A stretch of DNA of 51,243 nt from a virus. Its lineage: Duplodnaviria; Caudoviricetes. Each line of letters opens with the position of its first letter. Position 1 is the stretch's first letter. Positions 23,301 to 50,618 of the stretch are shown here, piece after piece. The DNA lies in IMG/VR virus record IMGVR_UViG_3300027917_000060, positions 1 through 51,243 of that record. One strand, 5' to 3'. Made by a program: the position numbers and the translations under genes. A model generated the notes under the pieces. That model ran no database searches. It saw only the letters and a program-made list of their open reading frames with translations, and was not told the origin of the DNA.

Positions 23301-23671
23301 TTGATATCTGCGCCATTGCACATAATCCACGTGTCATTGAACGAGGAGAAGTGCGGGATCGCCGTGGTGGACAGCCCGTTCAAACCACTGGATACGAAAC
23401 TCGGCGTGGTCGTGGGTGATGCCTCGTACATCGACCCGCCTGCGCTCGCCACAAGCTTGTCATCGCCGGTTTGGTACTCGTACTTGTGGATGCCGAGGAT
23501 CGTGCCGACGAAACTGTTCCCCGTCGCAGTCCGCCCTGGCTGCTTGTACACATGCGGCGACCCTACACGGTACTCACACCCTTTCGCAGTCTGCAGTTCA
23601 CCAGGCTTGAGTGTCGAGGCGTCTCGCGCAGTCACCAACCCCTGAGAGAAGTTGATCGGAATGTTGGGCAT
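20306..23671 (-). CDS. Tail nozzle / tail tubular protein B-like, with inserted lectin-like domain
   Basis: N-terminus NFSQGLVT...LKPGE is typical of P22 gp10/T7 gp12-like proteins; propeller-like composition; follows the adaptor. Confidence 0.7.
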   Translation of the reverse strand: MPNIPINFSQGLVTARDASTLKPGELQTAKGCEYRVGSPHVYKQPGRTATGNSFVGTILGIHKYEYQTGDDKLVASAGGSMYEASPTTTPSFVSSGLNGLSTTAIPHFSSFNDTWIMCNGADINYVREANAVFVDSTGDGDNNWSKGNWRPLGLQPPDEKPAWVENALATGSTAAPAASAGGSYTNVDNARDSDLATYAYATVRTANSPKVTTWSFSGSIADISGNLTLTITHGSASSVNTIGINPVGHDVDVSTSWINAKQKIEVSEDGGANWTTISALGGTITSKVTKYTLTTVVFGDLSPLKVRATTEATLVTGDPWFQGKIYEIELDNGQAVGTYTTTNPLYYLITEKYIDSDEVPHESIASPISDAVPPDTYGQIDITLPSAANNDHTQQFVIYRTLDLPNQGFPFFYKIGEANVWEAGGTYQDRIGDVPSTTIDELGTVVYYGLNQLRGTEEAYEALAILYPTNETLYTSLNGAPPISKIAKLFQGSMVYVPTTGNRIHYSIPTNISSQGAEQVPAQYYLEFLTPLNDDVVSICTCNAGRSLIVYFPRYSMLVNYLPQATDPGVFDTRVSEYVSTHRGCAGRLLSLELDVGAGRTIAISVDKLGVWSTDGVSTLQEWSRDLDWDTLMSGVDLSVAELVNNPQMRRIELLYEDTSGDRQEMHFFYGRLKQDNDGNQAPLITGPHPMGVRCHHYGLDSDGEWQGWSGGTGAAGVFTLTPTLWFDAYDPYGDGTSPNDIDDGTEWVDLQNARWTDKAAGARHATTSQVIGNQPTWYKVAGSTPAPPTLPNSKPIMSFAGARGMGANTFSVLSLGAFTAFGVVYLSDENEALIGGSMSPYPAGYIPAELRIQKIDGSAGSRMQCSDYNYGGDYKVDYKTLAQGGTDFSGTPWRLVKFTRDSDIPAVCTHEIDGIDIGIFFEDNNNFALDIHCIMQTILNGNPGSPDQYNTWVAEIMVFDSLLSDTDQEIVETYLANKWDVGTPQATSDVFIERDGNEDQAEGYDDQGNIPFQVKTGDMYIGNLGVATMTIFGYPKFEGSTTKSLAGDSAQAVIGTFRRDGASAATTKTKSYTINTQKKLYWSQYADRHTFEVRDISSTSLPALVGYEIEVREGGPSRDK

Positions 23672-24423
23672 TAGCGAATCCTAATAAACAGCTGGCCACG
23701 CAGTGGGTTTCTCTTGCCCGCAAACCTGCGATCCGCAAGCTTGAAGCGCTTGTTCGTGTCCGGGTGACGCTTGTCTACTGCCTTCAACTGCTGCAACGCG
23801 CGCATTTCCAGCCCTTGGAACGCCGCTACGTCTGGATGTCCTGGTCCGTAAAGGTGTATCGCCAGCCGCTTCTGCGCACCATATACCAATGCTGGTTCTA
23901 CTTCTGGCGGTATGTCAAGTGCAGCAGTCACTGAGCTTACAAGTGGAATGCGTCGATAATACTCCACGGTCAGCGTGTAGTCAGTAGCGGCGCCCGAGTC
24001 TGGTGTAGGGCCTAGGTACAACGTGCCGTCCCTCTCCACATTACGGAAAGAGTAAACGACAGGTATGCCCGACCCAATGTAACGGCTACTCCCGTACGCA
24101 TCCTGGTACTGCACGTACGGCAGGTACATCAACAGTAGTTCTTGCGTGGAGTCAGGGGTGTAGATCATACGAGCGATAGACTCGCGATACACGCCATTCC
24201 GCAGCACGATCGTGTTGGCGTCCGCAGTGATCGTCAGATTAGACTCGACCATCTTGTTGAACTCGTAGAGGTGCGAGTTCATTTCCTTGACGGTTTCATC
24301 AAGGAGGTCGAGTGCGACGCCCGCCATCTCGGTGTCGCTGGTCCTGTCAATGCCGTATACGTTGACTACCCTATCAACCAGGGCACTCTGATCAGACACC
24401 TTCTCCTGTTCCCACTGTGCCAT
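23671..24423 (-). CDS. Head-tail adaptor (tail tubular protein A-like)
   Basis: G.PVVYS, LYLGPTPD..YTLTVEYY and DIPPE..PALVYGA motifs of podovirus adaptors. Confidence 0.75.
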   Translation of the reverse strand: MAQWEQEKVSDQSALVDRVVNVYGIDRTSDTEMAGVALDLLDETVKEMNSHLYEFNKMVESNLTITADANTIVLRNGVYRESIARMIYTPDSTQELLLMYLPYVQYQDAYGSSRYIGSGIPVVYSFRNVERDGTLYLGPTPDSGAATDYTLTVEYYRRIPLVSSVTAALDIPPEVEPALVYGAQKRLAIHLYGPGHPDVAAFQGLEMRALQQLKAVDKRHPDTNKRFKLADRRFAGKRNPLRGQLFIRIR

Positions 24424-25516
24424 CCCGTCCTCCTGAGCGAACGATGTCGGCTAGGTCACGCACTGGTCCCTTCTTAACTACTCTCTCATATAAACTTACC
24501 CACTTGTCTACGTGCTTGTCAATGTGCCATTCGTCCACCACCCAATCGTAAAGCTCGCGTGCGGTCCGCTTACGCATTGGAGCGTCGGTAACTAACGCGT
24601 CGATCGCCTCCCGCCATTCATAGTTCCCCGCCACCTTGATCGCTGCGCTCGCCGGGACAGCAGCGTACGTGTCCCAATCGGTGCACAAGAACGCAGCGTT
24701 ACACATCGCTGCGTCGTACGCCTTGATGTGCGACTTCGAGCGGTTGAACTCGTTTTGTGCAACGGGAGCGAATATCACGTCAGGGGCAATCCAGCGCAGC
24801 GTCGCGCGGTACCGCGCCATCCCCATGGTTGGAATCGTAAATACCCGGTTGCGTATTGGATCGGTCGGCGACGGCAGCCACTTCAACGCCCAGTCTGGCA
24901 AGCAGCCAAGGAAGAACAGGCGCAAGTTCGGGTGGTCCTCCATGGCATGGACCAGCGCATCCTCAATCGTGTCCAAATCCCCTTTACGGCCTAGATTTCC
25001 AGCGAACATAAAGCGAACAGAATCGTCTTGGTGACGCTGCGGGTCCTTATCAAGCTGCCAATCCGGGGGGTAGACGCAGTTCGGTAATACCCACGACAGC
25101 TTGCAATCCTCGTCAAGTTGCTCCTGCAGGCGCGGTGTTGACACAGACACCGCGTCTGACATCCGCAGCATCATTCGCGTAATACGCCTGCCCTGCGAGC
25201 CGCCGTGATAGTCCCCAAAAGCGATGTTGTACGCTGGGACGTTCATGAAGTCATCGTCGATGTCCGTAATGAATGGGATCTCGGCATATTCACGCGCGGC
25301 TACAATGTACTTAAGAATCTCGTGGTTGATGACGTAGCCTGTGTGCAGGATGTCGTAATCCTTAACGTGCTTCATCAGCCACAAGTCAATGCGATCTTCG
25401 AAAGCGTTAGGATGCAGCTCTATGTCAACTCCTGCGCGCTTCAAGGCAGCGACTCCCAGCTCCGCGCGATAGTACCGCACGCCTCCAGCTTGTGGATGGA
25501 TTACACCGATACGCAT
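24392..25516 (-). CDS. Glycosyltransferase, GT-B fold (GT4-like)
   Basis: Start moved to 25516 (MRIGVIHP). Motifs YYR, TDIDDD, DAVSVSTPRL, VLPNC and APVAQNEFNRSKSHIKAYD. Confidence 0.85.
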   Translation of the reverse strand: MRIGVIHPQAGGVRYYRAELGVAALKRAGVDIELHPNAFEDRIDLWLMKHVKDYDILHTGYVINHEILKYIVAAREYAEIPFITDIDDDFMNVPAYNIAFGDYHGGSQGRRITRMMLRMSDAVSVSTPRLQEQLDEDCKLSWVLPNCVYPPDWQLDKDPQRHQDDSVRFMFAGNLGRKGDLDTIEDALVHAMEDHPNLRLFFLGCLPDWALKWLPSPTDPIRNRVFTIPTMGMARYRATLRWIAPDVIFAPVAQNEFNRSKSHIKAYDAAMCNAAFLCTDWDTYAAVPASAAIKVAGNYEWREAIDALVTDAPMRKRTARELYDWVVDEWHIDKHVDKWVSLYERVVKKGPVRDLADIVRSGGRDGTVGTGEGV

Positions 25517-26079
25517 GTCGCAACGTCCTGTGGATAGACGAACTTCGAACCTTGTGGAAAGAACAGGTCCATGTTTTGAATGTAGTTGTCCATGCACGGT
25601 GTCATGTGCCCGTGCACACCACGCACGCCGTGTGTTTCGGGCATGTTATAGACATACTCCGGTACGCCAGAGTGTCCTACGCGAAATGTCTGATGTGATG
25701 CAACGCAGTAGTTCATGCGCTTGCATCCCTCGTAAACGTCAAGATCCAGCAGCCAAGCAGGCGCACGAAACACTGGCGAATCAATCCCCATCTTCTTCGC
25801 GAGCTTAAGCTTTCGCACAGTCTCGTCGTCCGTCCAGTGCAGGCACTCACCACGTGTGTGCCGCCAACCATGCGGCGCTAGCTGAATCCACTTCCTGCCG
25901 AAGCGCTCATTCAGCGCAACGATCTTGTCCAATGCAACACACGTCGTCCGCTTCGGGATGGTGAACAGCGTAACCTTGAAGCCGCTATGCTTCTCTTTCA
26001 GCCTGACGAGTGGGTCCAACTCGTCGATCGTCGCGTCACAATAATCATCGAAATCTACGCAGAACTTCTTGGCGCTCAT
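25501..26079 (-). CDS. Polysaccharide deacetylase-like protein (NodB/CE4-like fold)
   Basis: VDFDD, VTLFTIP, APHGWRH, FRAPAW and HGH motifs. Confidence 0.75.
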   Translation of the reverse strand: MSAKKFCVDFDDYCDATIDELDPLVRLKEKHSGFKVTLFTIPKRTTCVALDKIVALNERFGRKWIQLAPHGWRHTRGECLHWTDDETVRKLKLAKKMGIDSPVFRAPAWLLDLDVYEGCKRMNYCVASHQTFRVGHSGVPEYVYNMPETHGVRGVHGHMTPCMDNYIQNMDLFFPQGSKFVYPQDVATCVSV

Positions 26080-26711
26080 TCAAACTCCCTGCCTATGTAT
26101 TTGAACAACACGTCGAACGTGTTTTTGTAGGGGATACAGGCGTACTCCATGCGCCAGTTCGGGTACGGCTTGAACAGCTCGATCCAGCCGATCGGGTTCG
26201 AGGTCCACCCGTAGTGCGAGGGGTTCTCGTCGAACTTCTCCTTGCTCTCGAGCGGTAGGGAGAGGTAGATGTACTTACGTGTCACACGTACCATCTCGTC
26301 AATGGCCTTCGGGATGTTGTAGCAGTGCTCCAGAGCTTGAGCGCTGAACGTGCACTGGTAAGCGTCATTGTCGAACGGAAGCTCGTGCATGTCGCAACAC
26401 ACCGCATCGCTAATCGTTTTGGCCTTCTCAATGAACTCCGGGATGATGTCCACCCCCATCACCTCCACAGTCGGCACGCGATTGATAAACTCGCGCATCT
26501 CGTAACCGACACGGCAGCCTAGAACGAGGATCTCGTTGGGACGTACACCCTGCGAGTGCATCCACTGGCAGAACAGCCCGGCGTTGATCTTCCCACGCTC
26601 GAACGGGTGCTCGATACTACCGTCGCTATGCCGTGTGTTCACGGACCGCTGCCGCTTGACGTAGCTCTCAGGCTCCTCGTCAAGGCGCCCACCTACGAAC
26701 TTAATAGCCAT
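26076..26711 (-). CDS. Class I SAM-dependent methyltransferase
   Basis: ILVLGCRVG, GVDI, DMHELPF and ALEH...EMVRV motifs. Start uncertain (26711 or 26735). Confidence 0.85.
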   Translation of the reverse strand: MAIKFVGGRLDEEPESYVKRQRSVNTRHSDGSIEHPFERGKINAGLFCQWMHSQGVRPNEILVLGCRVGYEMREFINRVPTVEVMGVDIIPEFIEKAKTISDAVCCDMHELPFDNDAYQCTFSAQALEHCYNIPKAIDEMVRVTRKYIYLSLPLESKEKFDENPSHYGWTSNPIGWIELFKPYPNWRMEYACIPYKNTFDVLFKYIGREFE

Positions 26712-27435
26712 GCTGTGCCCTAATGAAGTCGTCACATACCCTGCGAAATCGAGCCATGTTATCCACGGATGTCTCCTTACCGATCTTGTCCTCTGGGCGG
26801 TCCTTGCCGCCGATGTGGTACGCCTCGCCTGGGCCGATCATGTATGCCTCCATACCGAAGCGCAGCATGAATCGACAGCCTAGATCGTAGTCTACAAGAC
26901 CGTAGTCCTTGTACTCTAAGTCATGTCCTCCGACCGCGAAGTAGTCCTTCTTGCGCATGATCCAGTGCAAGTCGCGAAAGTCAGGGAACGCTTTGGGGTG
27001 CCCGCCCTTAAGCCGCCAGTCTTCGCGCTCGATCGGCAGGTCGGGGTACATGTCAACGGTGACATCGTGGGGCACGTCGTGCGTAGTGCCATAGACGATC
27101 AGCTCGGGCTCGGCGTACTCCAAGTTTGCTTCTATGGAACCAGGAGCGAGCACGACGTCGCCGTCGATATGCAAGACGTACTCAGTATCTGCGGCTTCCA
27201 TGCCTTGACGGATGGACTTGTGTGCGCCGAAGCCTTCGTGCTTGTGGTCCAGCAATCGCACAAGAAGAAGTGCGCGAGTCTCCTCGTTCGACTCTAGCAT
27301 GTTATCGTCAGTCCAAGGCTCGTCGTTCACGATGATCACACTGCGGATCGCATCAATGTTCGCGAGCAGCCCTGCCCGCACGAGCGGCCACGTTTTCTGC
27401 TTGCGGTAGTAATCTATGACGACGTCAACTTGCAT
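26701..27435 (-). CDS. Glycosyltransferase, GT-A fold (GT2/GT7C-like)
   Basis: VIIVND, LHIDGD (DxD), GGHDLEYKDYGLVDYD and YHI motifs. Confidence 0.85.
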   Translation of the reverse strand: MQVDVVIDYYRKQKTWPLVRAGLLANIDAIRSVIIVNDEPWTDDNMLESNEETRALLLVRLLDHKHEGFGAHKSIRQGMEAADTEYVLHIDGDVVLAPGSIEANLEYAEPELIVYGTTHDVPHDVTVDMYPDLPIEREDWRLKGGHPKAFPDFRDLHWIMRKKDYFAVGGHDLEYKDYGLVDYDLGCRFMLRFGMEAYMIGPGEAYHIGGKDRPEDKIGKETSVDNMARFRRVCDDFIRAQHGY

Positions 27436-28757
27436 TGTGCTATTTCCTTGCGGGCTTCGGCTTCAGTAACTCCGTACTCATAGATGTTCCTCATGTCGGC
27501 AAGTTCGCGTAGCTCAGTCAGCCACGCACGAACACGCGCAGCATCGCCCCACACCTTCGCCCATTCTCCAGGTTTGCCGATCGTGTGGAATCCTGCCGCG
27601 AAGTCCTCACTGTCCACGTCGATCTCTGGGAATCCGAACTTCGTTGGGTTGCGCCAGACTTGCGTACCTGGAAGAGGCACGAAGGCGTGGAAGCCCCATT
27701 TGTCTACAGGTGCCGTCTCGATGAACCGCTTCGTCTCTGCGATCGTCGCGACGTCCTCACCTGGGAACCCTACGATCATCTGGCCCCGGATGCCCATGCC
27801 TGCGTTCTTCACACAACGGATGGCACTCCAAGCCTCTTCCATCGTCTCGCACTTGTCCATGCGCTTGAGCATCTTGTCGCTGCCAGTCTCGAAGCCGAAA
27901 GTGACGTTCTGGCATCCCGCTGAGGCGAGCACATCAGCGAGCGCCTGATCCATCGTGTCGGCGCGGCACAGGCAATGCCACTTGAACTTGTGCTGCGGGA
28001 AGACGTTTTCGCACAGATGGTGCACACGCTTCTTGTTGATATTGAACGTATCGTCTTCGATGTAGATCAGGTCACACTCGTAGTCCTTGAGCAAGACGTC
28101 GAGTTCTGTGTGGAGATGCTCGTCGCTTAGGTAGCGTACAGCGCGGCCTGTAATGGCCGCCTGCGCGCAGAACGCACAATCGAACGGGCAACCGCGTCCC
28201 GTTTGTAGATAACCTTCATAGCGTACGCCGTCAGTCACGTACCTATTGATACCTACGTTGTGAAACGACCACATGTCTACGAGGTCACGTGCAGGACATA
28301 CGATCTTGCCCGCAGGCACACGCGGAAACTTCGATGCGTAGCCATGCAACCCATCGACCTTTTCACTCGGCCCGTTGTACATGAACTCGACGATGGCCTC
28401 GTCGCTCTCACCTACGAACGCATAATCCGCGTCCAGATGCTTCAAGCTCCACGCAGGCAACGCACTGACATGCGGCCCACCAACGATGATTTCGACTTTG
28501 CGGCGCGTACGTGCACGAATATGCTGAATCACGCGCTTCGCGATCGGTGCCTGCGCGCTCACGAGCGAGACGCCGTACACATCTGCGTCCGGGATGAGCC
28601 ACTTGTCCTCCGGCACTCCCACAAGATCGGCTACCTGAACTTCGATGCCTTCGAAGCGCAGAGAAGCCGCGAGGTACAGCACCCCCATCAACGGCAAATC
28701 ACGATCATTGATTAGCCAGGGGCTAGGCAGCTGTATCAGGACAATCTTTTCGCGCAC
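27414..28757 (-). CDS. B12-binding radical SAM enzyme (class B methyltransferase-like)
   Basis: N-terminal cobalamin domain (PLMGVLYLAA, IVGGPH, GESD), RGCPFDCAFC (CxxxCxxC), EDDTF, GFETG and VGFPGE. Confidence 0.93.
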   Translation of the reverse strand: MREKIVLIQLPSPWLINDRDLPLMGVLYLAASLRFEGIEVQVADLVGVPEDKWLIPDADVYGVSLVSAQAPIAKRVIQHIRARTRRKVEIIVGGPHVSALPAWSLKHLDADYAFVGESDEAIVEFMYNGPSEKVDGLHGYASKFPRVPAGKIVCPARDLVDMWSFHNVGINRYVTDGVRYEGYLQTGRGCPFDCAFCAQAAITGRAVRYLSDEHLHTELDVLLKDYECDLIYIEDDTFNINKKRVHHLCENVFPQHKFKWHCLCRADTMDQALADVLASAGCQNVTFGFETGSDKMLKRMDKCETMEEAWSAIRCVKNAGMGIRGQMIVGFPGEDVATIAETKRFIETAPVDKWGFHAFVPLPGTQVWRNPTKFGFPEIDVDSEDFAAGFHTIGKPGEWAKVWGDAARVRAWLTELRELADMRNIYEYGVTEAEARKEIAQCKLTSS

Positions 28758-29586
28758 GCTCTTTGTACCTCTCTAGCATATTTACGCTGTCTAGGTGTTT
28801 ACGCTGAGGGGTGTAAGCGTAATGCACAAATAAAGCTGAGCCGCAAAAGCACACTGGGCGCTCCAAACTCTCCGCCAGTGTCGTCGTCAACCACATCTCA
28901 TCATGCGCTACCTTGCCAGATGTCGCACGGCAGTTCTGGTACGGTATCTCGTCTCCGTAGTATGCATACACATGGTTCGGTGCGCGAAAGTAATCCTCGA
29001 CAACGATGCGCTCGAACAGGAACTCCTTGGTTGACCGGGCGTCAGCATGCGCCAAAAAGCTGTCATGCACTGCTTGTACCCAACCAACATCGTAATGTCC
29101 AACTGGGTCACTGGAATACCTGTTGCAAGGCCGCCAGTTTCGCACGTCTTTTGGCAATGCACCCAATCTCTGATGCTCCACGTTGCAATATGTGTTGTTC
29201 ACGATGTTGCCTACGACAGCCAAGTACTCACGATTCTGCCGTCTAAAGCTGGCTAGCTTCGAGATAGCGCCACGCGCCATCCACACGATGTCATCATCCA
29301 TCTTGATGTACATCTGCCCTGGCTCTTCACAGAATTGGTAGTACTCATCATACGGGTAGAACTCACCCTTCACCGCATCAGTCTCTCGGTTGGGCAACAC
29401 CTTCAACATGAACGTGTCCCTGTGCTCTGCAGCGAGGTCACGAATGTACTGCTTGTCGTCCTTGTCCTCCCATACGTTATCCCACAGCATGACGTACTTG
29501 TACGTCTTACGCTCTCGAAGTAAATAGGGGACCAAGACCTCCAGGTGGCGGCGCCTCCCACACGGAATGCACACAATCGGCTTCAT
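28723..29586 (-). CDS. Putative GT-A fold glycosyltransferase
   Basis: IPCGRRRHLEVL, YIKMDDDIVW (DxD), DE.WL and VHYAY motifs; cassette context. Confidence 0.65.
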   Translation of the reverse strand: MKPIVCIPCGRRRHLEVLVPYLLRERKTYKYVMLWDNVWEDKDDKQYIRDLAAEHRDTFMLKVLPNRETDAVKGEFYPYDEYYQFCEEPGQMYIKMDDDIVWMARGAISKLASFRRQNREYLAVVGNIVNNTYCNVEHQRLGALPKDVRNWRPCNRYSSDPVGHYDVGWVQAVHDSFLAHADARSTKEFLFERIVVEDYFRAPNHVYAYYGDEIPYQNCRATSGKVAHDEMWLTTTLAESLERPVCFCGSALFVHYAYTPQRKHLDSVNMLERYKERARKDCPDTAA

Positions 29587-30494
29587 TTACGTCCCTCACA
29601 CAAATCCACCCACCTAAACATGTTCTCACCGATCTTGGCGAAATAGTCGCTATCCACAGGGAAATCACGCAAACGTGCTGCGATCTTGCAGTATGACTGC
29701 ACTAACGACGACGCACGTACGTCCATGCTCCACACAAACTGCCACAACTCGCGGTGTATGCGATCGCCGGGCGCTTCCTTGTCCTTGTTTGCTTCGACAG
29801 ACGAGGCACGCTCGTGGTAGACCTGTGCGCCTCCATTGACGAAAGCCCAGTCGTGCTCGCTGAGCGCTTTCTGCGCAAACATCCCGCCCCATATGTCTGC
29901 GTAGCGGTCAAACGGTGTACCTTCGCCCTGTGCAGGTTGGTACATCACCTGCGTCACATCACGCTTGAAGCCAATGTTCATTGCAGATTGCGCGAATGGA
30001 GGGTGAATACGGCGCCATGCATTGCTCTTGTGATAGTACGGCACGATGGCGTGATGCATGTCGAACGCAGAATAATCAAGCACTCCGTTCCACAATCCGT
30101 GTGTGAGCGCGACAGGCATCAGCAAGCCTGAGCGCGGCATACCACGCGTGTATACCCCTTCGACCGTGAAGTTCCAATGAGGCACAGGCACTGACAGCCC
30201 GTCACTATGCTGCGCCGCCCACCACTTCGGGACGAAGCAATCGTCGTCCACAGTGAGAACGTAGTCATAACCATCAAGATACGCCTGCAAGAATCCAGCG
30301 CTACGAATCGAGTCGCAGCGTTGGCCGTACATTTCGGGCTCTGGCGCTACGATGTGGTGCACCTCCTGCCCATTCTCGTCTACATTGCGGCGCTCGCGAT
30401 CATGCACGACATACCACTTCACAGGCACAGTCTGCTCTGGGACTTTGAAGCCACGACACGTAGGCACTACAGCCGCAATCCTAGGGCGCTGCAT
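29583..30494 (-). CDS. RGP/GT75-like protein (reversibly glycosylated polypeptide / NDP-sugar mutase family)
   Basis: Start moved to 30494 (GGAG RBS). Motifs IRSAGF, TVDDDC, YTRGMP, HGLWNGVLDY, MNIGFKRD and RYADIWGG. Confidence 0.75.
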   Translation of the reverse strand: MQRPRIAAVVPTCRGFKVPEQTVPVKWYVVHDRERRNVDENGQEVHHIVAPEPEMYGQRCDSIRSAGFLQAYLDGYDYVLTVDDDCFVPKWWAAQHSDGLSVPVPHWNFTVEGVYTRGMPRSGLLMPVALTHGLWNGVLDYSAFDMHHAIVPYYHKSNAWRRIHPPFAQSAMNIGFKRDVTQVMYQPAQGEGTPFDRYADIWGGMFAQKALSEHDWAFVNGGAQVYHERASSVEANKDKEAPGDRIHRELWQFVWSMDVRASSLVQSYCKIAARLRDFPVDSDYFAKIGENMFRWVDLCEGRK

Positions 30495-31209
30495 CGGCTC
30501 TCCAAGGTGGAATGTACGGGATTGACTGGAATAATCCGTGCTGCTCGAAGTGTGAAGGGTCGCGTTCTTCCTGCGCGCGGGTGTTATGCCGCACACGGAT
30601 GTGCTTCAAATACGCCATCGGAATAATCGGATCGTGATTGCGGCAATACGAAGCCATGCTCGTTGCATCGCCTGAGCCCAACGGCATGCGCACGTCGGAG
30701 ACATAGTCCTTGATTAGCTCCATAGGATGCAGCCTGCAAATGCCGCCGATCGCGTACGTCAGGAACTCAAGCTGCAGCTTCTTGACCATACACACCTGGG
30801 AGCGTGCCGGTGGGTTCTTTAGACCTCGAATCGTAGGCGAGAGGATCATTTTGTCGTCGAGGAGTGCGCTTGCTTCGACTAGCTTCTTGAGCCAACGCTT
30901 CGACGGGAACTCGCAGTCGTCGTCTAGACGTAGAAGGTACTTGGCGCCTTTGTCACGCGCTAGCCAATGCGCCTCGTTCCATGCGACATGCTGCCCTACG
31001 TTCGTAGAGTAGCAGTACGACGTGTCAATGAGGCCAGTACTCTCAGCGGTCTTGATAACATTCTCGCCAACCTCGGCGCACCCCGACCCGACGACGTGCC
31101 AGTGGAACTTACACCCTGCCGTACGACGAGCCTGTGTGATTGTCTCGTTGAGCATGCGAGCGCGTTCGGGCGTCGATGCACGCGTTACCGTAAATGCGCA
31201 GATCATCAC
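30481..31209 (-). CDS. Glycosyltransferase, GT-A fold (GT2-like)
   Basis: NVGQHVAWN, LLRLDDD, IGGIC and VRH motifs. Confidence 0.75.
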   Translation of the reverse strand: MMICAFTVTRASTPERARMLNETITQARRTAGCKFHWHVVGSGCAEVGENVIKTAESTGLIDTSYCYSTNVGQHVAWNEAHWLARDKGAKYLLRLDDDCEFPSKRWLKKLVEASALLDDKMILSPTIRGLKNPPARSQVCMVKKLQLEFLTYAIGGICRLHPMELIKDYVSDVRMPLGSGDATSMASYCRNHDPIIPMAYLKHIRVRHNTRAQEERDPSHFEQHGLFQSIPYIPPWRADAAP

Positions 31210-32006
31210 TAACCCGAAATAAACGCCGCGCTAATCCCGCCTGGACGCTGACGTCGCGGTGTCTCCGTCAACGGCCTTGTGAGTTGCAAGTTCTCACCAT
31301 GCCAGTGGTACTTCTGCACAACTGCATTCACGCCCTTTCCACGCCATCCACTGAAGAACACACCGCGTGTGAACAACTCCCAATCGCCGAAGCGCCGGTA
31401 CTCTTCATTCCACATCTTGCCTGTCGCTAACTGCAGTCTCCACAGGGCACCCTTTGCGACTAGCGCATCCGACGTGTCGATGAAATTCGTCGAAGGATTA
31501 TGCAGACGCTGCACGTTCTCTGCAAACGGCACGAACGGCGATACGCCATTATGTAGATTCATTCTCGTGCACCCCTCGTCGATCACATACTCGCGGCGCC
31601 CGTAAACAAAATCCGGCCAGACCTTGCCCTCCTCGATCGCCTCGACAAGCACCGTCAAGTGGTTTGACGTCCATTCGTTGTCGTCGTCTAGATACGCGAT
31701 GTAATCTCCTCGCGCGTGCCATATAGCTACATTTTTTGGAACGCATTGGTACCCACTGTTCTCATCCAACGCCAAGAACCGAAAGTCAACCTCGGTCAGC
31801 TCGAACACATCTGCTGACTCTTTGCACACCTCGATCGTCTCTTCGTCAGCAGGGCCGTCATGGATGACGATTACCTCGAAGTCGTCAAAGTCCTGGTTTT
31901 CTACAGAATCTAACGCGCGCTTGAGTAGCTTGGGGCGCTTGTACGTATTGACGATCGCCGTGACGCAAGGAAACTCACGAAAGGGGCGGGATTCTCGCAT
32001 GCTCAA
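31209..32006 (-). CDS. Glycosyltransferase family 2
   Basis: TYKRP.LL.RAL.SV..Q, VIHDG, ARGDYIAYLDDD and GDWE motifs. Confidence 0.92.
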   Translation of the reverse strand: MSMRESRPFREFPCVTAIVNTYKRPKLLKRALDSVENQDFDDFEVIVIHDGPADEETIEVCKESADVFELTEVDFRFLALDENSGYQCVPKNVAIWHARGDYIAYLDDDNEWTSNHLTVLVEAIEEGKVWPDFVYGRREYVIDEGCTRMNLHNGVSPFVPFAENVQRLHNPSTNFIDTSDALVAKGALWRLQLATGKMWNEEYRRFGDWELFTRGVFFSGWRGKGVNAVVQKYHWHGENLQLTRPLTETPRRQRPGGISAAFISG

Positions 32007-32373
32007 TCAAATCCTTCACTTCGGCTGTCTCGCGTAGAACACGTTGATCGAGCAACGATTTCGCAGTCTCGCGCACGCCCCGCATGGGGTAGACTTCCCA
32101 TTTGTACTCCTCTTCGTTCCAGACGGATGGGTTGTTCGCATATGGAACATAGCCTTCTAAGTACCCACAGTTGCAGACGAACGAATCACGGTACCAGTCG
32201 TCTTGCTCATGCCCTGTTTGCACGTGTCCTTCGCGCTTCGGCAGTGTGAAATCGCAGATCGAGATCGTGTCCTTGAATCCGTCCTTTGAGCGGTAGTAAC
32301 GCAAGCGTGCCCAAGTACGTTTGTTCCGCTCGATAAACCTACGAAAATCGTCCCAGTACATGCCGTGCATCAT
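31975..32373 (-). CDS. Hypothetical protein, first CDS of the glycan cassette
   Basis: AAGGAG RBS that overlaps the 3' CCA of the tRNA-like RNA. Confidence 0.7.
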   Translation of the reverse strand: MMHGMYWDDFRRFIERNKRTWARLRYYRSKDGFKDTISICDFTLPKREGHVQTGHEQDDWYRDSFVCNCGYLEGYVPYANNPSVWNEEEYKWEVYPMRGVRETAKSLLDQRVLRETAEVKDLIEHARIPPLS

Positions 32374-32381
32374 GGGCTCCT

Positions 32382-32475
32382 TGGCGGAGGGCGGAGGACT
32401 CGAACCCCTCGCCCGATCTTTCTAGTCGCCACCGTCAAGCGTCGAGCCGGGCGTTTATCCTTTGCTACACCCTCC
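32382..32475 (-). ncRNA. tRNA-like RNA (94 nt) with Ser-type acceptor end and no canonical anticodon arm
   Basis: Acceptor GGAGGGTG/CGCCCTCC followed by G-CCA; T-loop GGGG-TTCGAGT-CCTC; TAGC...GG D-loop-like segment; central helix CGCCCGG/TCGGGCG enclosing 30 nt. Confidence 0.75.
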
Positions 32476-32483
32476 ATGCGCTG

Positions 32484-32492
32484 AGTATAACA
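32484..32492 (-). promoter_or_regulatory. Extended -10 promoter (TGtTATACT) for the tRNA-like RNA and glycan cassette
   Basis: TATACT ends 8 nt before the 5' G of the RNA. A TTGACG lies 19 nt upstream in the terminator loop. Confidence 0.55.
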
Positions 32493-32525
32493 AAAAACGG
32501 GGGAGCCCCGTCAAGGACTCCCCCG
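32492..32525 (-). terminator. Rho-independent terminator after the capsid genes
   Basis: CGGGGGAGTCCT-TGAC-GGGGCTCCCCCG hairpin followed by TTTTTT. Confidence 0.88.
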
Positions 32526-32556
32526 CTGCTATCCCAGGACGAATCCCAGGCTGGCA

Positions 32557-32763
32557 TTACTTGCCTGAAGTAGGCTTCGATGTGGACTTCGACCCAGACG
32601 AGCCGAAACCACCCGCACCCTTGGCGTTCTTCGCATTGGGCGCGCCATAGTGGTTCCCCTGTCCTGCGCCACCCGTCGTGGGATCGCAGGTCTGACCAGA
32701 GTCCTTGGAGTACTTCATGAGGCCCGCAGGCTCGAACTTTCCGCCAGTTTTGTAGCTAGCCAT
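32557..32763 (-). CDS. Small Gly/Ser/Lys-rich protein after the major capsid (68 aa)
   Basis: Strong AAGGAGG RBS before MASYKTGG; lies between the capsid stop and the terminator. Confidence 0.7.
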   Translation of the reverse strand: MASYKTGGKFEPAGLMKYSKDSGQTCDPTTGGAGQGNHYGAPNAKNAKGAGGFGSSGSKSTSKPTSGK

Positions 32764-32774
32764 GTTGGCCCTCC

Positions 32775-33698
32775 TTACAGCGACAGGGGGTAGTTGAGGC
32801 GTACCAGTCGATATTCCGTGGCCGACCATGCGGCAGGCACGACACCGAAGTACACCTTCGCACCGACTGTCGCGACTTGGTTCACGGGGTCACTGGTACC
32901 GCCGCTCCCCAGTTGTTTGACGAACGTGCGCGCCGTCATGTCGCTGATCTCGGTGACGTAATACGCATCGGGCGCGAACATGTAGTTACGCGCGCCGCTG
33001 ACAGCCGCCGAAATCGGTGCGGTCTCCTTGATGTTCGAGGAGGTGACGAAGCGTGCACCGTAAAGACGCCCGATTTCACCGATGTAGATGCGATCCGCAT
33101 TTCCCTCGGTGTACTTCGTGACGTCGAGCCACGCACCACCACTCAAGTTGATCTGCAAGTCGTATGCAGCCTTTGGGTGGATGATGCAAGGATAGTGGTT
33201 GTCGGGCGGGCGTGGGTTGTCCGCAGAATCGAGCGTCACTACAGCCTGAATGATGTCCGCAGGCTTGAGATAGTCGGTTCCGGTACCCTCGGACTGAATG
33301 GCTCCTGTCGCGGACAGCGCATCACGCACCGTGGTGTCCATCTTCTTTGCGATGTCCCGCGCGATGTCGACAAGCGACAGCTCGACGACGTCCGAAAGCG
33401 CAGTCATCACCAGCACGTCGGAGTGCTTGTACGCGCCCGCATATTGAGCCATCGTGCCCGAGATGTACTGGTCGCTGATTGGGCACGTCCCGATCACCGT
33501 TCCCTCGGTGTTTGCGAACACGATGTTCTTCTTCAACAGCCTCGGGATCTTGATGGTCGTACCGAAGTTACGCGGCACGGTCCTCTTGGTCCCGAACTGA
33601 TAGAAGTACAAGTTCGGGTACAGGTTCTCACCGAGCACCGCATCCCAGTAAGGCGGGATGAAATGGGTGAGGGTGCTGCTGGTTGTAGGTCCAGCCAT
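32775..33698 (-). CDS. Major capsid protein, N4-gp56-like family
   Basis: QFG...VPRNFGTTIK, IIHP...YDL, GEIGRLYGARFV and DPVNQ..TVG.K motifs; follows the scaffold. Confidence 0.9.
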   Translation of the reverse strand: MAGPTTSSTLTHFIPPYWDAVLGENLYPNLYFYQFGTKRTVPRNFGTTIKIPRLLKKNIVFANTEGTVIGTCPISDQYISGTMAQYAGAYKHSDVLVMTALSDVVELSLVDIARDIAKKMDTTVRDALSATGAIQSEGTGTDYLKPADIIQAVVTLDSADNPRPPDNHYPCIIHPKAAYDLQINLSGGAWLDVTKYTEGNADRIYIGEIGRLYGARFVTSSNIKETAPISAAVSGARNYMFAPDAYYVTEISDMTARTFVKQLGSGGTSDPVNQVATVGAKVYFGVVPAAWSATEYRLVRLNYPLSL

Positions 33699-34821: not shown

Positions 34822-35217
34822 CTACCGACTGGCTGTGAAACCAGTGTATCTGCTTTCACCAGTTACATTTAACACATCCTCTCCGTGGATGCCAGTTGTT
34901 CGTTGTGCGCGGTCCTCCTGTTTCAGCTTCTTGTCGTGTAGGTCCTCGTATTGCCGGTTGAGGATCGCTGGAAATGCGAGCAATCGTTCGATGACGTGTA
35001 GTGCTGCTCGTTTCTCGTTGTCTCGTGAGTTGCCGAACTTGTCAACGGCGCCATTGAGTAGCTCGGCAACGAGGTCTTTGCGTACACGTTGCATGCGTGC
35101 CATGTAATCTGTCCACGCTGGTTGCGAGCCGAGCGCGGCGTACAGTGCGTGCAAGCGTGCAACGTCGTCATAGTTAGAGACCTGTATCGGCGATGGGAGC
35201 CCCGCTTCGGTCAACAA
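34822..35217 (-). CDS. Small helical protein between portal and scaffold
   Basis: C-terminal part of ORF 34822..35373. The probable start is a TTG overlapping the portal end (uncertain). This position is commonly occupied in podoviruses. Confidence 0.55.
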   Translation of the reverse strand: MLTEAGLPSPIQVSNYDDVARLHALYAALGSQPAWTDYMARMQRVRKDLVAELLNGAVDKFGNSRDNEKRAALHVIERLLAFPAILNRQYEDLHDKKLKQEDRAQRTTGIHGEDVLNVTGESRYTGFTASR

Positions 35218-37231
35218 TTCCGCCAGTTGCGCTCGCTCGGTCTCCCGGATTCTGCACGTTTTGCATCGGGTTGTTTTGACCGTTTCCACCAGCGCCGCCA
35301 GGGAATTGCGCGGGACCTTGCATAGGCCCTTGAGGCCCCTGCCCACTTTCTGCGCCCATGCCTTGATTTTCATTCGGTGCTCCCCCTGCCATGCCCTGCG
35401 CAGCTTGCATTGCCATCATCTGCTGCAGCATGACTTCTTCCTCGGTTCGTACGTACTTGTCCGGGTCCTTCCAGCCACGATCTTGCATGAGCTTGCGTAG
35501 GATCTGCTCGGGGCGCAAGTACGGGGCAAACGACGGGTTCGCAGCGAGTTGAACAAGCTCTTGGTCCATTTGGAGGCGAGTCTCCTTGGACAACGCGAAC
35601 ATCCCACCGCTTACGATAATGTCGATCGGTATCTGGATTTCCGCCAGGTCGACCTGCGCGTACTCCTCGCCCACGGTGCGGACGATGCGGGGTGAGGACA
35701 TGCGCATTTGCAGCCACTTCCAGGTGCGTTCGAGCAGCTCCTTCTTGACGGTGTAGTCGTTCCACATGGTGTAGAGCATGTGGCGCGCGTTGCCTTGCTG
35801 AATTTTACGCTCGACTTCGGTAGCTGTCTGTCTATCTTGGGCGCCGACGCCTTGCATGATGTCGCTGGCTGCGGCGGCGTGCTCGGCCTGGGTCTGACGA
35901 TACTGGTCCTCATTCCACGCATCGGGCAGCACCGGCCTGCGCTCAAGTACGCTGAACACGTCCCTGACCGTTTCGCCTTGTTCGGGGCGCACCTCGATCA
36001 CGCCTGCGGGTTGAATGAGGAACTGGTTGTCACTGACTACTGCGTCAGCTTTGTACAGATACTGCTGCCAGATGCCAAGGAATACCTCGTCGAGGCGCAT
36101 GTTTGCGAGCCGTGACTGCTGGTCCGCGAGCGGGCCGATGTAGCGCAGAATCGACTCGCCGTACAAGCGCTTAGGGATGGGTACCGACTTTATGGGAAAG
36201 TAAGGAGGTCTGCCATCAGGAGTCGGCGAGGGTTCGTCGCGAAGTACGTATTTACCCTCAGCTATCACGGTAAGACGCCAGGCGGAGTCGTCTTTCTCGC
36301 GTAGCTCTTGCGGTACCCATCCCCAGCATTGCCATAGTTTGATGCCGATGCCGTCACGCATCGGAGTGGTGAGGTGAAGGGGGATACCCTCAGTCGCTTC
36401 GGGCTCTCGTGCATATTCTACGGATACGCCCGCCGACGTGCCCGAGCGTGCATCACTAAGACTATCCCCTCCTTTCATCATCGCGTTGGGAGGAGGTATC
36501 GAGGCCATGAGTGCGGCGAACTCAGTCTTGTCGTATACGCCAAGATGATCTTGAACGTCTTGCAGCTTTTCGACCGTGGTGTCGATCTCTTCGATGAACC
36601 ACTCGTACTCGCCCGTTGGGTCGGGGAACACACGGTCGAGCGTGAGCCAATCGAAGTCGACGTTGTTGTACGCCTCTTCCGTCACGACCTTGGCTTCGAC
36701 GCCCATGACCTCCATGCCTGTTTCTTCGTCAATAATTGGCGTCGGCACGAGTACCTGGCGCTCGGTGTACTCTTCCTTCCAGACGATCTTGCCCCACGCA
36801 TGCCCCATGATCAGGGCGTACTTGAGCGCTTCGTACATCTTAGGGAAGAGTTCCATCTCTTCGACTGTGGCGCGCAGGAGTGACTCGCACATGAGTTCGT
36901 ACTCGGAGTCACGGCGTTGGCGAGCTTCGACGCTGAACCAGTCCGGCGTGTCGAACATGCCGATGACGTAGCGTGGAAGCAGCGTTTCGATGACCTTGTA
37001 GACCGTGGGGATGACTTCGTTGGCGCGCCACCAGTCGGCAGGGTCCTCCATGGGCTCGGCCCAATTCCGGTACCACTTCCAGTACTTGATCCAGTCGCCT
37101 TCGTAGAGCTGCTTGAGTTCTTGCGAACGCTGGCGACGCGCGGTCCATAGGTTGATGCGTACGTCGAAGGGGCCGTTGAGCTGGTTAGGCCCCTCGAAAT
37201 ACGCACCGCTCGATCCTGCCATGAAAGGCAT
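35174..37231 (-). CDS. Portal protein (P22-like)
   Basis: 685 aa between TerL and scaffold; ALIMGHAWGK, VFPDP, LYGES and G...RQTATE motifs; Gln/Gly-rich tail. Confidence 0.88.
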   Translation of the reverse strand: MPFMAGSSGAYFEGPNQLNGPFDVRINLWTARRQRSQELKQLYEGDWIKYWKWYRNWAEPMEDPADWWRANEVIPTVYKVIETLLPRYVIGMFDTPDWFSVEARQRRDSEYELMCESLLRATVEEMELFPKMYEALKYALIMGHAWGKIVWKEEYTERQVLVPTPIIDEETGMEVMGVEAKVVTEEAYNNVDFDWLTLDRVFPDPTGEYEWFIEEIDTTVEKLQDVQDHLGVYDKTEFAALMASIPPPNAMMKGGDSLSDARSGTSAGVSVEYAREPEATEGIPLHLTTPMRDGIGIKLWQCWGWVPQELREKDDSAWRLTVIAEGKYVLRDEPSPTPDGRPPYFPIKSVPIPKRLYGESILRYIGPLADQQSRLANMRLDEVFLGIWQQYLYKADAVVSDNQFLIQPAGVIEVRPEQGETVRDVFSVLERRPVLPDAWNEDQYRQTQAEHAAAASDIMQGVGAQDRQTATEVERKIQQGNARHMLYTMWNDYTVKKELLERTWKWLQMRMSSPRIVRTVGEEYAQVDLAEIQIPIDIIVSGGMFALSKETRLQMDQELVQLAANPSFAPYLRPEQILRKLMQDRGWKDPDKYVRTEEEVMLQQMMAMQAAQGMAGGAPNENQGMGAESGQGPQGPMQGPAQFPGGAGGNGQNNPMQNVQNPGDRASATGGIVDRSGAPIADTGL

Positions 37232-48398: not shown

Positions 48399-49016
48399 AT
48401 GAAAGAGATCACCATAACGCGGGCCATGGCGGCGCTCAAGATCAACGAGGACAAGATTGCCAAGCGTAGGCAGTTTCAGCTGGCGTACCTGATTCGCGAG
48501 TCCGACCGAGTCGACCCCATCAGGGCCGAGGGTGGAAGCGAAGGGTACATTCAGCGCTTGGGGCAGTCCATCAATGATCTGATCGCAGAGCGCCTCGCTG
48601 TCAAGCGAGCCATCGCCGTCGCGAACATGCGGCATGAACTCACGTTGCCGATGAACCCAGCGGCACCACGTCGTGTCACCCGCTCGATCCACGACTGGCT
48701 CGTGTGGCGCAACCAGATCGCCAAGCCCACGCGGGACCACCTGATCGCAATGGCGAAGATGATTCAGCAAGCGCGCTTCGGCACCGTGCGTGATCGACTG
48801 CAGTCGTTTGCTCAGCGGCGCTCTGTCACGGAAGCTGAGGACGCAAAGAAGGACATCGCCGTCAACATCGACGAGGAGAAGCTCAACGAAGAGATCGAAC
48901 TCATCACGCACATCTTGCAGGAGCTGGATGGCGAGCTGAGCCAGTTCAACGCAACTCATACGGTGAAGGTGGGGGAGACGCTCGACACGATCGAGGACCT
49001 CGACCGGCGACAATAG
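48399..49016 (+). CDS. Coiled-coil hypothetical protein (DIP1984-like pattern)
   Basis: AGGAGG RBS; TITRAMAALK N-terminus, K.AI..AN, and LD..LS.FNATH C-terminus. Confidence 0.65.
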   Translation: MKEITITRAMAALKINEDKIAKRRQFQLAYLIRESDRVDPIRAEGGSEGYIQRLGQSINDLIAERLAVKRAIAVANMRHELTLPMNPAAPRRVTRSIHDWLVWRNQIAKPTRDHLIAMAKMIQQARFGTVRDRLQSFAQRRSVTEAEDAKKDIAVNIDEEKLNEEIELITHILQELDGELSQFNATHTVKVGETLDTIEDLDRRQ

Positions 49017-50543: not shown

Positions 50544-50618
50544 GATGATATAGCTCAATTGGTAGAGCACCAGACCATAAATCTGGCGTTCCGGGTTCGA
50601 TTCCCGGTATCCTCGCCA
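50544..50618 (+). tRNA. Atypical tRNA, nominal anticodon ATA (Tyr), with C33 and G73
   Basis: GATGATA/TATCCTC acceptor (one mismatch), GCTC/GAGC D-stem, CCAGA-CCATAAA-TCTGG anticodon arm, G-CCA end. Confidence 0.8.

Follow-up and report, generated by a model that had tools for sequence, protein, structure and literature searches.

The window analysed here, 51,243 nucleotides (nt) in length, is the whole IMG/VR virus record IMGVR_UViG_3300027917_000060 (Duplodnaviria; Caudoviricetes), and its head module holds an island of putative glycan-synthesis genes. Ten open reading frames (ORFs; g1 to g10), all on the minus strand, occupy positions 24392-32373 without a gap, between the terminator of the capsid genes and the gene of an SU10-type adaptor. 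The upstream boundary is the gene of a major capsid protein (MCP) with an N4-gp56-like HK97 fold (32775..33698, minus strand; phrog_1357, 1.9e-33), and the downstream boundary is that of a head-tail adaptor of 250 amino acids (aa) (23671..24423, minus strand; Pfam PF24175 SU10_adaptor, 5e-14). These two matches and the ORF coordinates bear out the initial annotation of this DNA, which had placed ten overlapping genes between capsid terminator and head-tail adaptor. When the longest ORFs are taken, neighbors overlap by 32 nt (g1/g2), 1 nt (g2/g3), 4 nt (g4/g5), 35 nt (g5/g6), 22 nt (g6/g7), 35 nt (g7/g8), and 4 nt (g8/g9), and g10 overlaps the adaptor gene by 32 nt; the longer overlaps of g3/g4 (116 nt) and g9/g10 (97 nt) become 14 and 16 nt with starts aligned to those of relatives. 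From capsid stop to adaptor start the island spans 8.35 kb, the largest among the loci with both ends, the others measuring 4.6-6.5 kb. Apart from one 5-pair stem, the scan called nothing resembling a terminator from g1 to the adaptor, and the G+C content of the island (0.535-0.582) is no different from that of the remaining genome.

Every enzyme family named in the initial annotation was recovered, with g3 below the Pfam cut-off and g10 only a probable GT-B glycosyltransferase (GT), and the DxD motif is kept in all five GT-A-like proteins. The same annotation saw no evident transmembrane segment in these enzymes, and a Kyte-Doolittle scan agrees: none of the 10 island proteins reaches a 19-residue mean of 1.6. 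No flippase, polymerase, or initiating phosphoglycosyl transferase is present in the island.

Five of the ten genes (g1, g2, g3, g9, and g10) form a core that recurs in related phages. The first, g1 (31975..32373), encodes a clade-specific protein of 132 aa, always just upstream of g2 and with no recognisable fold. It has no Pfam, PHROG, or NCBIfam match; its alignment holds 10 homologues and its model has a predicted local distance difference test score (pLDDT) of 80.5, a structural search found nothing above background (best Z 5.4, to part of PI-PfuI), and no fused g1 forms were found among longer proteins, which is weak evidence. g2 (31209..32006) is a GT2 glycosyltransferase (PF00535, 4.7e-22, 79.1 bits versus a cut-off of 23.3) whose DxD motif (LDDDN) is invariant in 14 homologues. 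Its nearest named NCBIfam families are PglI, WcaA, TuaG, and EpsD (5.6e-19 to 2.3e-11, all far below their cut-offs), its PHROG matches are to 'GtrB-like O-antigen conversion' families (2e-7, over the N-terminal GT2 domain only), and there is a weak match to the SunS peptide S-glycosyltransferase family (5.5e-4). g3 (30481..31209) gives only a subthreshold PF00535 match (3.3e-4, 21.1 bits, below the cut-off of 23.3) and is GT2-like by the fold of its predicted model only, the Atlas model having template modelling (TM) scores of 0.73-0.83 to GT2 clusters; its DDD motif (LDDDC) is invariant or nearly so in 10 homologues, and its profile found nothing meaningful in the PDB (best a 14-3-3 protein at 0.034).

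The g9 product (25501..26079) is classed as a CE4 (NodB)-fold deacetylase-like enzyme by fold and motifs. Sequence searches of g9 gave no Pfam match at E<=0.01 and nothing meaningful in the PDB (best E 0.6-1.3, with a polysaccharide deacetylase at E 1.3). Its AlphaFold2 model (pLDDT 87.9) had 47 PDB matches in Foldseek at E<=1e-3, the top ten all being CE4-type (NodB-fold) deacetylases or esterases or their close kin, among them 7AX7 (4.2e-7), ArnD 8T0J (2.9e-6, the second best), and SpPgdA (5.4e-6). The DFDD, HGxxH, FRA, and HGH motifs are invariant in five homologues and resemble CE4 motifs 1, 2, 3, and 5. DUF2334 was matched at 9.1e-8 in ORFs of two relatives. A search of 1.84 billion proteins gave the family 433 cluster representatives at E<=1e-3, many of them fused forms. 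The g9 model also matches the turret protein of Haloferax tailed virus 1 (8QPG chain TA, E 1.6e-4), so a CE4-like fold can serve structurally in the head of a tailed virus; in g9, however, motifs that look catalytic are retained.

The last core gene, g10 (24392..25516, longest ORF to 25597), always adjoins the adaptor gene. It has no Pfam match, matches phrog_7162 'glycosyltransferase' at 2.6e-20, and its homologue in GenBank MW202801.1 is annotated 'glycosyltransferase'. The fold support is weaker: over the C-terminal part, PDB profiles of GT1 (5I45, 0.0049) and PglA (0.012) lie in a weak range of 0.005-0.02, and hhalign to Pfam-verified GT1 ORFs of relatives gave a probability of 66% (E 5.5e-5). 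For this reason we call g10 only a probable GT-B glycosyltransferase.

Relatives of the locus were retrieved with an MCP profile made from an alignment of 39 homologues, which confirmed 500 viral and 479 metagenomic stretches; the best 80 of each were taken as loci. Single-protein queries of viral contigs with the MCP or the radical S-adenosylmethionine (SAM) enzyme gave nothing, and alignments were needed to retrieve the loci. About 30 related viral and metagenomic contigs, as well as MW202801.1, keep the core order (g1)-g2-g3 ... g9-g10-adaptor, which is the capsid-GT-adaptor part of the synteny proposed earlier as a search of viral metagenomes. At an MCP identity of at least 40% there are 21 loci; five end within 500 nt of the MCP gene, and in every one of the 16 that extend farther, island genes follow it directly (tblastn and hidden Markov models). 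One locus at 37% MCP identity (L006) also carries island genes, which are absent from L007 and L096 (38%), L099 (37%), and about 140 loci at 31-36%.

A g9 profile search gave 38 viral loci, all 38 with a g2- or g3-like GT-A gene nearby; the MCP gene was on the same locus in 17 and the adaptor gene in 11. The usual order in these loci is portal-scaffold-MCP-(g1)-g2-g3-g9-(methyltransferase)-g10-adaptor-nozzle. Identities of the core proteins run from 25 to 67% and roughly track MCP divergence, and g3, g5, and g9 are mostly viral families. MW202801.1, a complete circular podovirus genome of 40 kb whose MCP is about 25% identical, has the order MCP, hypothetical, 'Fe-S oxidoreductase', glycosyltransferase, PhyH dioxygenase, methyltransferase, nodB-like, glycosyltransferase; the presence of an integrase marks this phage as temperate. 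In a more distant locus (L278, 1-9875), g3-, g10-, methyltransferase-, g9-, and g10-like genes precede the portal gene instead of following the MCP gene, and so remain within the head module.

Between the conserved ends, the middle of the island varies. GT1/GT4 enzymes occur in L002, L085, L091, and L100, one to three methyltransferase domains in L004, L006, and L100, a weak GNAT match in L004, and a GDP-mannose 4,6-dehydratase (6e-89) in L085. A Pfam tally over 148 ORFs from 22 islands counted 32 matches to GT2, 18 to methyltransferases, 5 GT1/GT4, 2 GDP-mannose dehydratases, 2 DUF2334, 2 HNH, 2 zinc-finger, and 1 radical SAM; among the 25 commonest of 38 families, HNH and zinc-finger were the only ones unrelated to sugars or methyl transfer. 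The island is thus a conserved feature of the head module in a phage clade, with a variable middle. The initial annotation had named, as an outcome that would overturn its view, a recent host lipopolysaccharide or exopolysaccharide (LPS/EPS) fragment absent from related phages; the conservation in about 30 contigs and MW202801.1 means that the island is not a recent host fragment.

In the present phage the middle is a block of five genes, g4 to g8. g4 (29583..30494, longest ORF to 30596) encodes a homologue of GT75 nucleoside diphosphate (NDP)-pyranose mutases, similar to reversibly glycosylated polypeptides (RGPs) (PF03214, 2.6e-12, 47 bits versus a cut-off of 23.8). Its profile matched MtdL (7XPR/7YUA, 3.6e-11) and UDP-arabinopyranose mutase (8CID, 3.9e-6) in the PDB. 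Residues D87, D109-111, D195, R257, D260, and the Mn-binding H287 of MtdL were shown by mutagenesis to be needed in the conversion of NDP-pyranose to NDP-furanose (PMC9937993); counted on a HMMER alignment, g4 keeps equivalents of D87, D109-111, D195, R257, D260, and H287, which are also conserved in the L091 homologue. Conserved equivalents of S228 and Q229 are lacking in the aligned region, which also leaves out the autoglycosylated arginine R159 of MtdL. A 'TRGMP' motif is shared with L091, and presumably resembles the arginine motif of plant RGPs. g4 would, on these similarities, likely supply a furanose donor, and g5 or g7 is likely the transferase for it, since both travel with g4. g5 (28723..29586) is a GT-A-fold protein of a mostly viral family (phrog_4447 'glycosyltransferase', 2e-6) with an MDDD motif; no Pfam match was found, its profile gave nothing meaningful against the PDB (best ribosomal S16 at 0.29), and its Atlas model has TM scores of 0.57-0.67 to GT2 clusters, the nearest clusters being viral hypotheticals. 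g7 (26701..27435) is a GT2 glycosyltransferase (PF00535, 1.5e-7, 32.0 bits versus a cut-off of 23.3; DxD IDGDV), and g8 (26076..26735) a class I SAM-dependent methyltransferase (PF08241, 1.3e-12).

g6 (27414..28757) encodes a B12-binding (class B) radical SAM enzyme, with an N-terminal cobalamin-binding domain (PF02310, residues 20-124, 6.9e-15) and a radical SAM domain (PF04055, residues 186-346, 1.9e-18) whose CxxxCxxC motif (C190, C194, C197) is invariant in 36 homologues. No equivalog reaches its cut-off: the best NCBIfam is the PhpK family (138.8 bits, far below the cut-off of 600), followed by the radical SAM enzyme ApyD of ribosomally synthesized and post-translationally modified peptides (RiPPs) (4.4e-34, also below cut-off). 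The family numbers at least 500 homologues at E<=1e-10, bearing the source names 'BchE' or 'YgiQ'; two homologues (P0127 and P0140) carry intein and HNH domains (PF14890, PF13392). For g6 homologues in 36 other viral loci, the most frequent of the 143 nearest same-strand neighbors were GT2 (21) and methyltransferases (about 11), accompanied by other GT families, NDP-sugar epimerases/dehydratases, and pyruvyl transferases. These distant loci share few partners with the island at the BLAST level (a g2-like gene in 3 of 80, an RGP-like gene beside the radical SAM gene in 1 of 80), and their glycan context is visible only via the Pfam neighbor tally. The neighborhood suggests that the g6 substrate is a glycan, and because the viral homologues sit among GT2, methyltransferase, and NDP-sugar genes, a role in sugar tailoring, most simply C-methylation, fits the context better than a porphyrin role. 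C-methylation is the reaction of GenK-type enzymes. Viral B12-radical SAM genes annotated 'bchE' have been discussed as heme/chlorophyll (porphyrin) genes (PMC13452462).

The single RGP-like case is an unrelated viral contig (L240, 8647-11182) in which the gene just before a B12-radical SAM homologue is RGP/GT75-like, a hint that the two enzymes act together. Within the clade, the g4-g8 block with RGP and radical SAM genes is common to one relative only, L091, whose capsid protein is 43% identical and whose counterparts of g4, g6, g5, g7, and g8 are 49, 61, 34, 33, and 35% identical, with the order of g5 and g7 swapped. The radical SAM gene was found in 2 of the 23 cassettes examined, the phage record and L091.

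The leader between the MCP gene and g1 holds several small elements, all on the minus strand. Between the MCP gene and the terminator, we read from the sequence a 68-aa ORF rich in G, S, T, and K with its own ribosome-binding site (32557..32763), which was absent from the initial annotation; its product is probably disordered. Many cassette-bearing relatives, though not all, likewise have a short ORF of low complexity behind the MCP gene, and these fast-evolving counterparts share N-terminal 'GGK..PGK' or 'FGKYG.GG.NPGK' motifs. By a crude test, a small post-MCP ORF is present in 22 of 32 cassette loci versus 73 of 130 cassette-free loci. The product is a possible decoration protein or glycan acceptor. 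An intrinsic terminator follows the capsid genes (32496..32527; a 14-pair stem with 9 G-C pairs and a T-run), and a hairpin with a T-run is found at the matching place in relatives; in Page, a phage in culture, a terminator is likewise annotated behind the MCP gene, but without sugar genes.

A promoter-like site (32484..32514) consists of TTGACG (32514-32509), a 19-nt spacer, and the extended -10 sequence TGtTATACT (32492-32484). The island had been credited with an apparent promoter of its own; the hexamers are there by reading, and TTGAC(A/T/G) with a TATAAT-like hexamer recurs at the matching place in L083, L084, L085, L087, and L088, but a promoter scan allowing spacers of 16-18 nt made no call in the leader, so that the promoter is a motif-level match only. 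Terminator hairpin and promoter-like hexamers are interleaved (32484-32527), as they also are in the leaders of L085 and L088; transcripts from upstream would stop at the hairpin, and those started at the promoter, without the 5' arm of the hairpin, would read on. The succession of capsid gene, terminator, restart, and minor structural genes resembles gene 10, terminator, and gene 11 of T7.

A tRNA-like element (32382..32475) precedes g1. Its acceptor stem of 7 bp is perfect, its T-loop reads TTCGAGT, and GCCA is present, but the D arm is degenerate and the anticodon region oversized. The leading tRNA-like RNA of the initial annotation was therefore partly upheld, its acceptor stem, T arm, and GCCA being present but its scores lying below every standard threshold: the element was called neither by ARAGORN at default settings nor by Rfam RF00005 at the gathering score, reached 14.4 bits (E 5.2) against a tRNA-Sec model, was called by ARAGORN only at -ps80 or -ps70 with conflicting identities, and, with a fold z-score of -0.84, is no stabler than shuffled sequence. 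Relatives hold real tRNA genes in the slot between capsid terminator and g1, 28 in L002 (11603-17262), 3 in L085 (1349-2301), and 2 in L088 (2431-2873). This slot is a tRNA-gene insertion hot spot, and because of these genes we read the element as a decayed or atypical tRNA gene.

We interpret the island, with slightly more belief than doubt and from gene context alone, as a virus-encoded cytoplasmic pathway that glycosylates a virion protein. The acceptor may be the capsid protein, the small protein encoded after it, or one of the S/T-rich tail proteins. The pathway would be of the Leloir type, expressed with the late structural genes, and would build a tailored oligosaccharide on a virion protein. 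Most capsid-gene transcripts would end at the terminator, and the promoter overlapping it would restart transcription, which would run from the tRNA-like leader across all ten enzyme genes into the adaptor and tail genes, so that the enzymes would be made late in infection and in small catalytic amounts. The core enzymes g2 (GT2), g3 (GT2-like), and g10 (GT-B) would transfer sugars from host nucleotide sugars, and g9 (CE4) would strip an N- or O-acyl group off one residue. The extra block would add a furanose, g4 making the NDP-furanose donor and g5 or g7 transferring it, while g8 would add an O- or N-methyl group and g6 probably a C-methyl group, a step that needs cobalamin and the absence of oxygen. 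For g1, a part as a subunit that targets or assists g2 is conceivable. Since the middle of the island varies across relatives, strain-specific glycan 'serotypes' on the particle are suggested.

Several observations argue for a virion target. The island lies on the same strand as the MCP and adaptor genes and between them, without gaps and with g10 overlapping the adaptor gene, and is presumably co-transcribed with the adaptor and tail genes. The islands encode almost nothing outside sugar and methyl chemistry, and the DxD motif is kept by all five GT-A-like proteins. Its place in the head module is fixed over a very deep divergence, from 79 to about 25% MCP identity and including L278, and it encodes exclusively soluble enzymes, with no export machinery. 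In temperate MW202801.1, an island belonging to the late operon would be silent in the lysogen, as would be expected of a role in the virion more than of serotype conversion. A precedent exists in mycobacteriophages, where GTs encoded in tandem by the phage, with an O-methyltransferase, glycosylate the subunits of capsid and tail tube (Freeman 2023, cited in PMC11600133 and PMC12619734).

Other observations weigh against a virion glycan. No RNA runs containing the stretch are listed, and no acceptor signature was found. A C-terminal extension of the capsid protein was considered as the acceptor and rejected, the tail after the conserved RxVRL being shorter in cassette-bearing phages (median 7 aa in 28 MCPs) than in cassette-free relatives (12 aa in 88 others). 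S129, S230, and S234 are enriched as S/T positions in cassette MCPs and, being confounded by shared descent, are only candidate sites. The crude test gave no support to the small post-MCP ORF as an obligate partner of the island. The cassette GTs have no strong homology to the validated mycobacteriophage enzymes, g5 alone giving partial matches (49% coverage, 28-29% identity) to GT- or methyltransferase-annotated genes in 19 mycobacteriophage records, e.g., Marvin and MosMoris. Finally, soluble GT2 enzymes commonly act on lipid-linked acceptors, so the lack of transmembrane segments is compatible with a host target. The virion glycan of the initial annotation is, in sum, the best-supported reading of an island conserved in the head module, from context and with no acceptor signature.

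The alternative that survives best, although we consider it unlikely, is late remodelling of a host envelope glycan. The island enzymes would act at the cytoplasmic face on undecaprenyl-linked intermediates of O-antigen, capsule, teichoic-acid, or S-layer glycan, with export by a host flippase and ligase, and could thereby block superinfection or keep progeny from sticking to debris. PglI, WcaA, TuaG, and EpsD, the nearest named families of g2, act on lipid-linked sugars, and ArnD, the second-best structural match of g9, deformylates an undecaprenyl-linked sugar; the PHROG matches of g2 (2e-7) are likewise to GtrB-like O-antigen conversion. That soluble GT2 and ArnD-like CE4 enzymes typically use undecaprenyl-linked sugars keeps this alternative alive, and it weakens the argument of the initial annotation that the lack of transmembrane or signal segments speaks against host-surface conversion, PglI, WcaA, and TuaG being soluble or peripheral themselves. 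Viromics, moreover, usually reads phage GT clusters as host-surface modification (PMC12801897, PMC13452462). A host target is harder to reconcile with a head-module position held over MCP identities of 79 to about 25%, with the presumed co-transcription with the adaptor and tail genes and the 32-nt overlap with the former, and with an island that has no membrane protein, flippase, or initiating transferase. Serotype-conversion genes are usually morons expressed in lysogeny. For Gtr-type serotype conversion in particular, the transmembrane scan of the ten proteins found no membrane GtrA/GtrC-like protein in the island, and what the phage would gain from remodelling the host in the last minutes of a lytic cycle is doubtful.

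It is improbable that the island instead glycosylates the 68-aa peptide (32557-32763) in the manner of a RiPP or glycocin, as a capsid decoration or a released product. The S/T/G/K-rich composition, own ribosome-binding site, and location of its ORF immediately upstream of the island would suit such a substrate, as would the ApyD (4.4e-34, below cut-off) and weak SunS (5.5e-4) matches of g6 and g2. Against this, the crude test finds no such ORF in L252-L257, L276, L261, L281, and L100, the peptide is fast-evolving with no conserved leader-core architecture, and the radical SAM gene occurs in only two of the examined cassettes.

Hypermodification of phage DNA with a tailored oligosaccharide before packaging is very improbable. 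It can draw on reports that phage DNA glycans may hold furanoses, that their clusters may include an NDP-sugar mutase and several GTs, and that group transfer to DNA happens late, before packaging (PMC13326640), that GT-A and GT-B enzymes both glycosylate DNA (bioRxiv 10.1101/2023.12.21.572611), and on the PhyH-type Fe/2-oxoglutarate dioxygenase in the MW202801.1 cassette. The known routes described in these two sources need a base hydroxylated through a ThyA homologue, or a C5-methylase with a 5mYOX/TET enzyme (bioRxiv 10.1101/2023.12.21.572611, PMC13326640), and a six-frame search of the whole record, which could be incomplete, gave no match to PF00303, PF12851, or PF00145 at E<=0.1. With no ThyA-like, TET/JBP, or C5-methylase gene in the record, DNA glycosylation is unlikely, in line with the initial annotation, which had held it the less likely target. 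In addition, no family A or protein-primed family B DNA polymerase is recognisable in the record, no base-hydroxylating gene is annotated among the 61 coding sequences of the complete relative MW202801.1, and the island lies in the head module, away from nucleotide-metabolism genes.

That the island is a moron, an LPS/EPS fragment captured from a host not long ago and without a role specific to the phage, is hardly credible despite the moron-like terminator and promoter-like site before it, being largely refuted by a core gene order conserved in about 30 contigs at 25-67% protein identity that roughly tracks MCP divergence, the mostly viral families of g3, g5, and g9, the lack of MCP relatives in 185,579 species genomes, and a G+C content with no anomaly (neutral or against).

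Outside the island, the record has the general layout of a podovirus. Nearly all large genes lie on the minus strand, ordered as a podovirus structural module: a large terminase (39060-40847; phrog_38, 2e-60), the portal (35174-37231), proteins of 183 and 339 aa between the portal and MCP genes, and, past the adaptor, very large proteins of 1121, 430, 905, 568, 2235, and 1355 aa without a family match, followed by an amidase-type endolysin. The two giant ORFs of 1355 and 2235 aa (1958-12732, minus strand) match neither Pfam nor PHROG. The record is linear with a CheckV completeness estimate of 100%, and because end repeats are absent, sequence could be missing despite that value; no tyrosine integrase was recognisable in it. 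In a small-gene region, a 205-aa ORF on the plus strand (48399-49016) matches the PHROG tail-fibre family phrog_1491 (9e-11), and ARAGORN called a plus-strand tRNA-Tyr with the unusual A34 anticodon ATA (50544-50618), neighbored by tRNA-Tyr(GTA) and tRNA-His, with a tRNA-Met further off.

The MCP has 152 homologues at E<=1e-5, some of them source-named 'N4-gp56 family major capsid protein', and is 26% identical to those of the Bacillus podophages Page and Pascal and about 31% to unannotated gut phage contigs. The capsid gene is in two pieces in L100 (1326-2883) and L281 (2602-4033); in L100 a 205-aa ORF with a weak LAGLIDADG match (0.0087) lies between them, which suggests a capsid-gene intron or intein. 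At the DNA level, 50,697 phage records held no relative of the island when 7.9 kb of it was used as a blastn query, and tblastn of g9 against the same records gave no match. Three DNA runs listed as containing the stretch carry the label marine sediment metagenome; two come from a single sample, which may be its source. The lack of MCP relatives in the species genomes means that there is no clue to the host and no sign of a nearby cellular locus.

To our knowledge, virion glycosylation in phages has been shown so far only for some actinobacteriophages, with two to four transferases. A literature search, with supplements outside its reach and prior mention thus possible, found the island undescribed and no structural operon of a phage reported to encode a radical SAM or GT75 enzyme. 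Three things are new here: a slot conserved across the clade although its middle varies, a block with radical SAM and GT75 genes, and the likely mis-annotation of viral 'bchE' genes. If the virion reading is true, virion glycosylation would extend to an unrelated and environmentally common podophage group, and phages would keep a dedicated, rapidly diversifying glycan locus in the head module. Selection on the particle surface would be implied, e.g., for particles that are stable, adhere, or escape grazers, proteases, or lectin-like defences of the host, and the compact soluble enzyme set (a GT75 mutase, a class B radical SAM enzyme, and a minimal CE4) would be of use in glyco-engineering. It would also correct the common viromics annotation of the B12-radical SAM family as 'bchE' heme/chlorophyll genes (PMC13452462), a correction proposed because the family sits among GT2, methyltransferase, and NDP-sugar genes in the 36 other viral loci. 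More tentatively, and here with doubt prevailing, the slot may be an O-antigen-like, hypervariable 'capsid glycan locus' fixed in the head operon of a widespread environmental podophage clade, each lineage having its own glycan (in this phage with a furanose and a C-methylated sugar), and many 'bchE/YgiQ' genes of viromes may serve in the tailoring of virion glycans.

Among known systems, chlorovirus PBCV-1 builds an unusual methylated glycan on its major capsid protein with host-independent cytoplasmic GTs and methyltransferases. It is a eukaryotic giant virus, and unlike the arrangement proposed here its glycan is N-linked, its capsid protein has a double jelly-roll, its enzymes are unrelated, and its genes are not known to form one operon. 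GenK, GenD1, and Fom3 are class B radical SAM methyltransferases acting on sugars or phosphinates. Like such enzymes, e.g., PhpK, g6 combines an N-terminal B12 domain with a CxxxCxxC radical SAM core, and its gene lies among glycan genes; it differs in the lack of an equivalog-level match (138.8 bits versus 600). As in MtdL/Hyg20 and the plant UDP-arabinopyranose mutases, g4 keeps the DxD, the Mn-binding His, and the catalytic Asp/Arg equivalents, but it is phage-encoded and in a structural operon, and the GT75 members listed in PMC9937993 are bacterial, archaeal, or eukaryotic only. Bacterial O-antigen and capsule loci share with the island conserved flanks and a variable middle of GTs, methyltransferases, and NDP-sugar enzymes; unlike them, the island has no Wzx, Wzy, initiating transferase, or export genes and lies inside a phage head operon. 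Clusters for phage DNA glycosylation (T4 alpha/beta-GT, 5mYOX-associated GTs, RB69/DLP3 arabinosylation) are similar in their several GTs, furanose donors, and late action, and differ in the base-hydroxylating or hydroxymethylating enzymes that are absent from this record.

The closest likeness is to the virion glycosylation of mycobacteriophages (clusters F and O; Che8 and Corndog), which also relies on tandem soluble phage GTs with a methyltransferase. There, decoration of capsid and tail has been shown (PMC11600133, PMC12619734, PMC13313380, PMC11256854), and here it is proposed from the genes. The present phage differs in being a podovirus with an N4-gp56-like MCP and an SU10-like adaptor, in carrying the genes between those two, in having ten of them, with a CE4 deacetylase, GT75 mutase, and B12-radical SAM enzyme in the set, and in lacking the C-terminal MCP extension that is the acceptor in mycobacteriophages (as cited in PMC12619734); homology between the GT genes of the two systems is weak and partial and confined to g5. 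The initial annotation had called the pathway richer than the phage examples known to it, which is only partly true, a cyanomyovirus with 13 glycosyltransferases having been published (PMC12801897). As the best available reading, the island would work like the virion glycosylation of phages or giant viruses, with enzymes and a layout that differ from the described examples.

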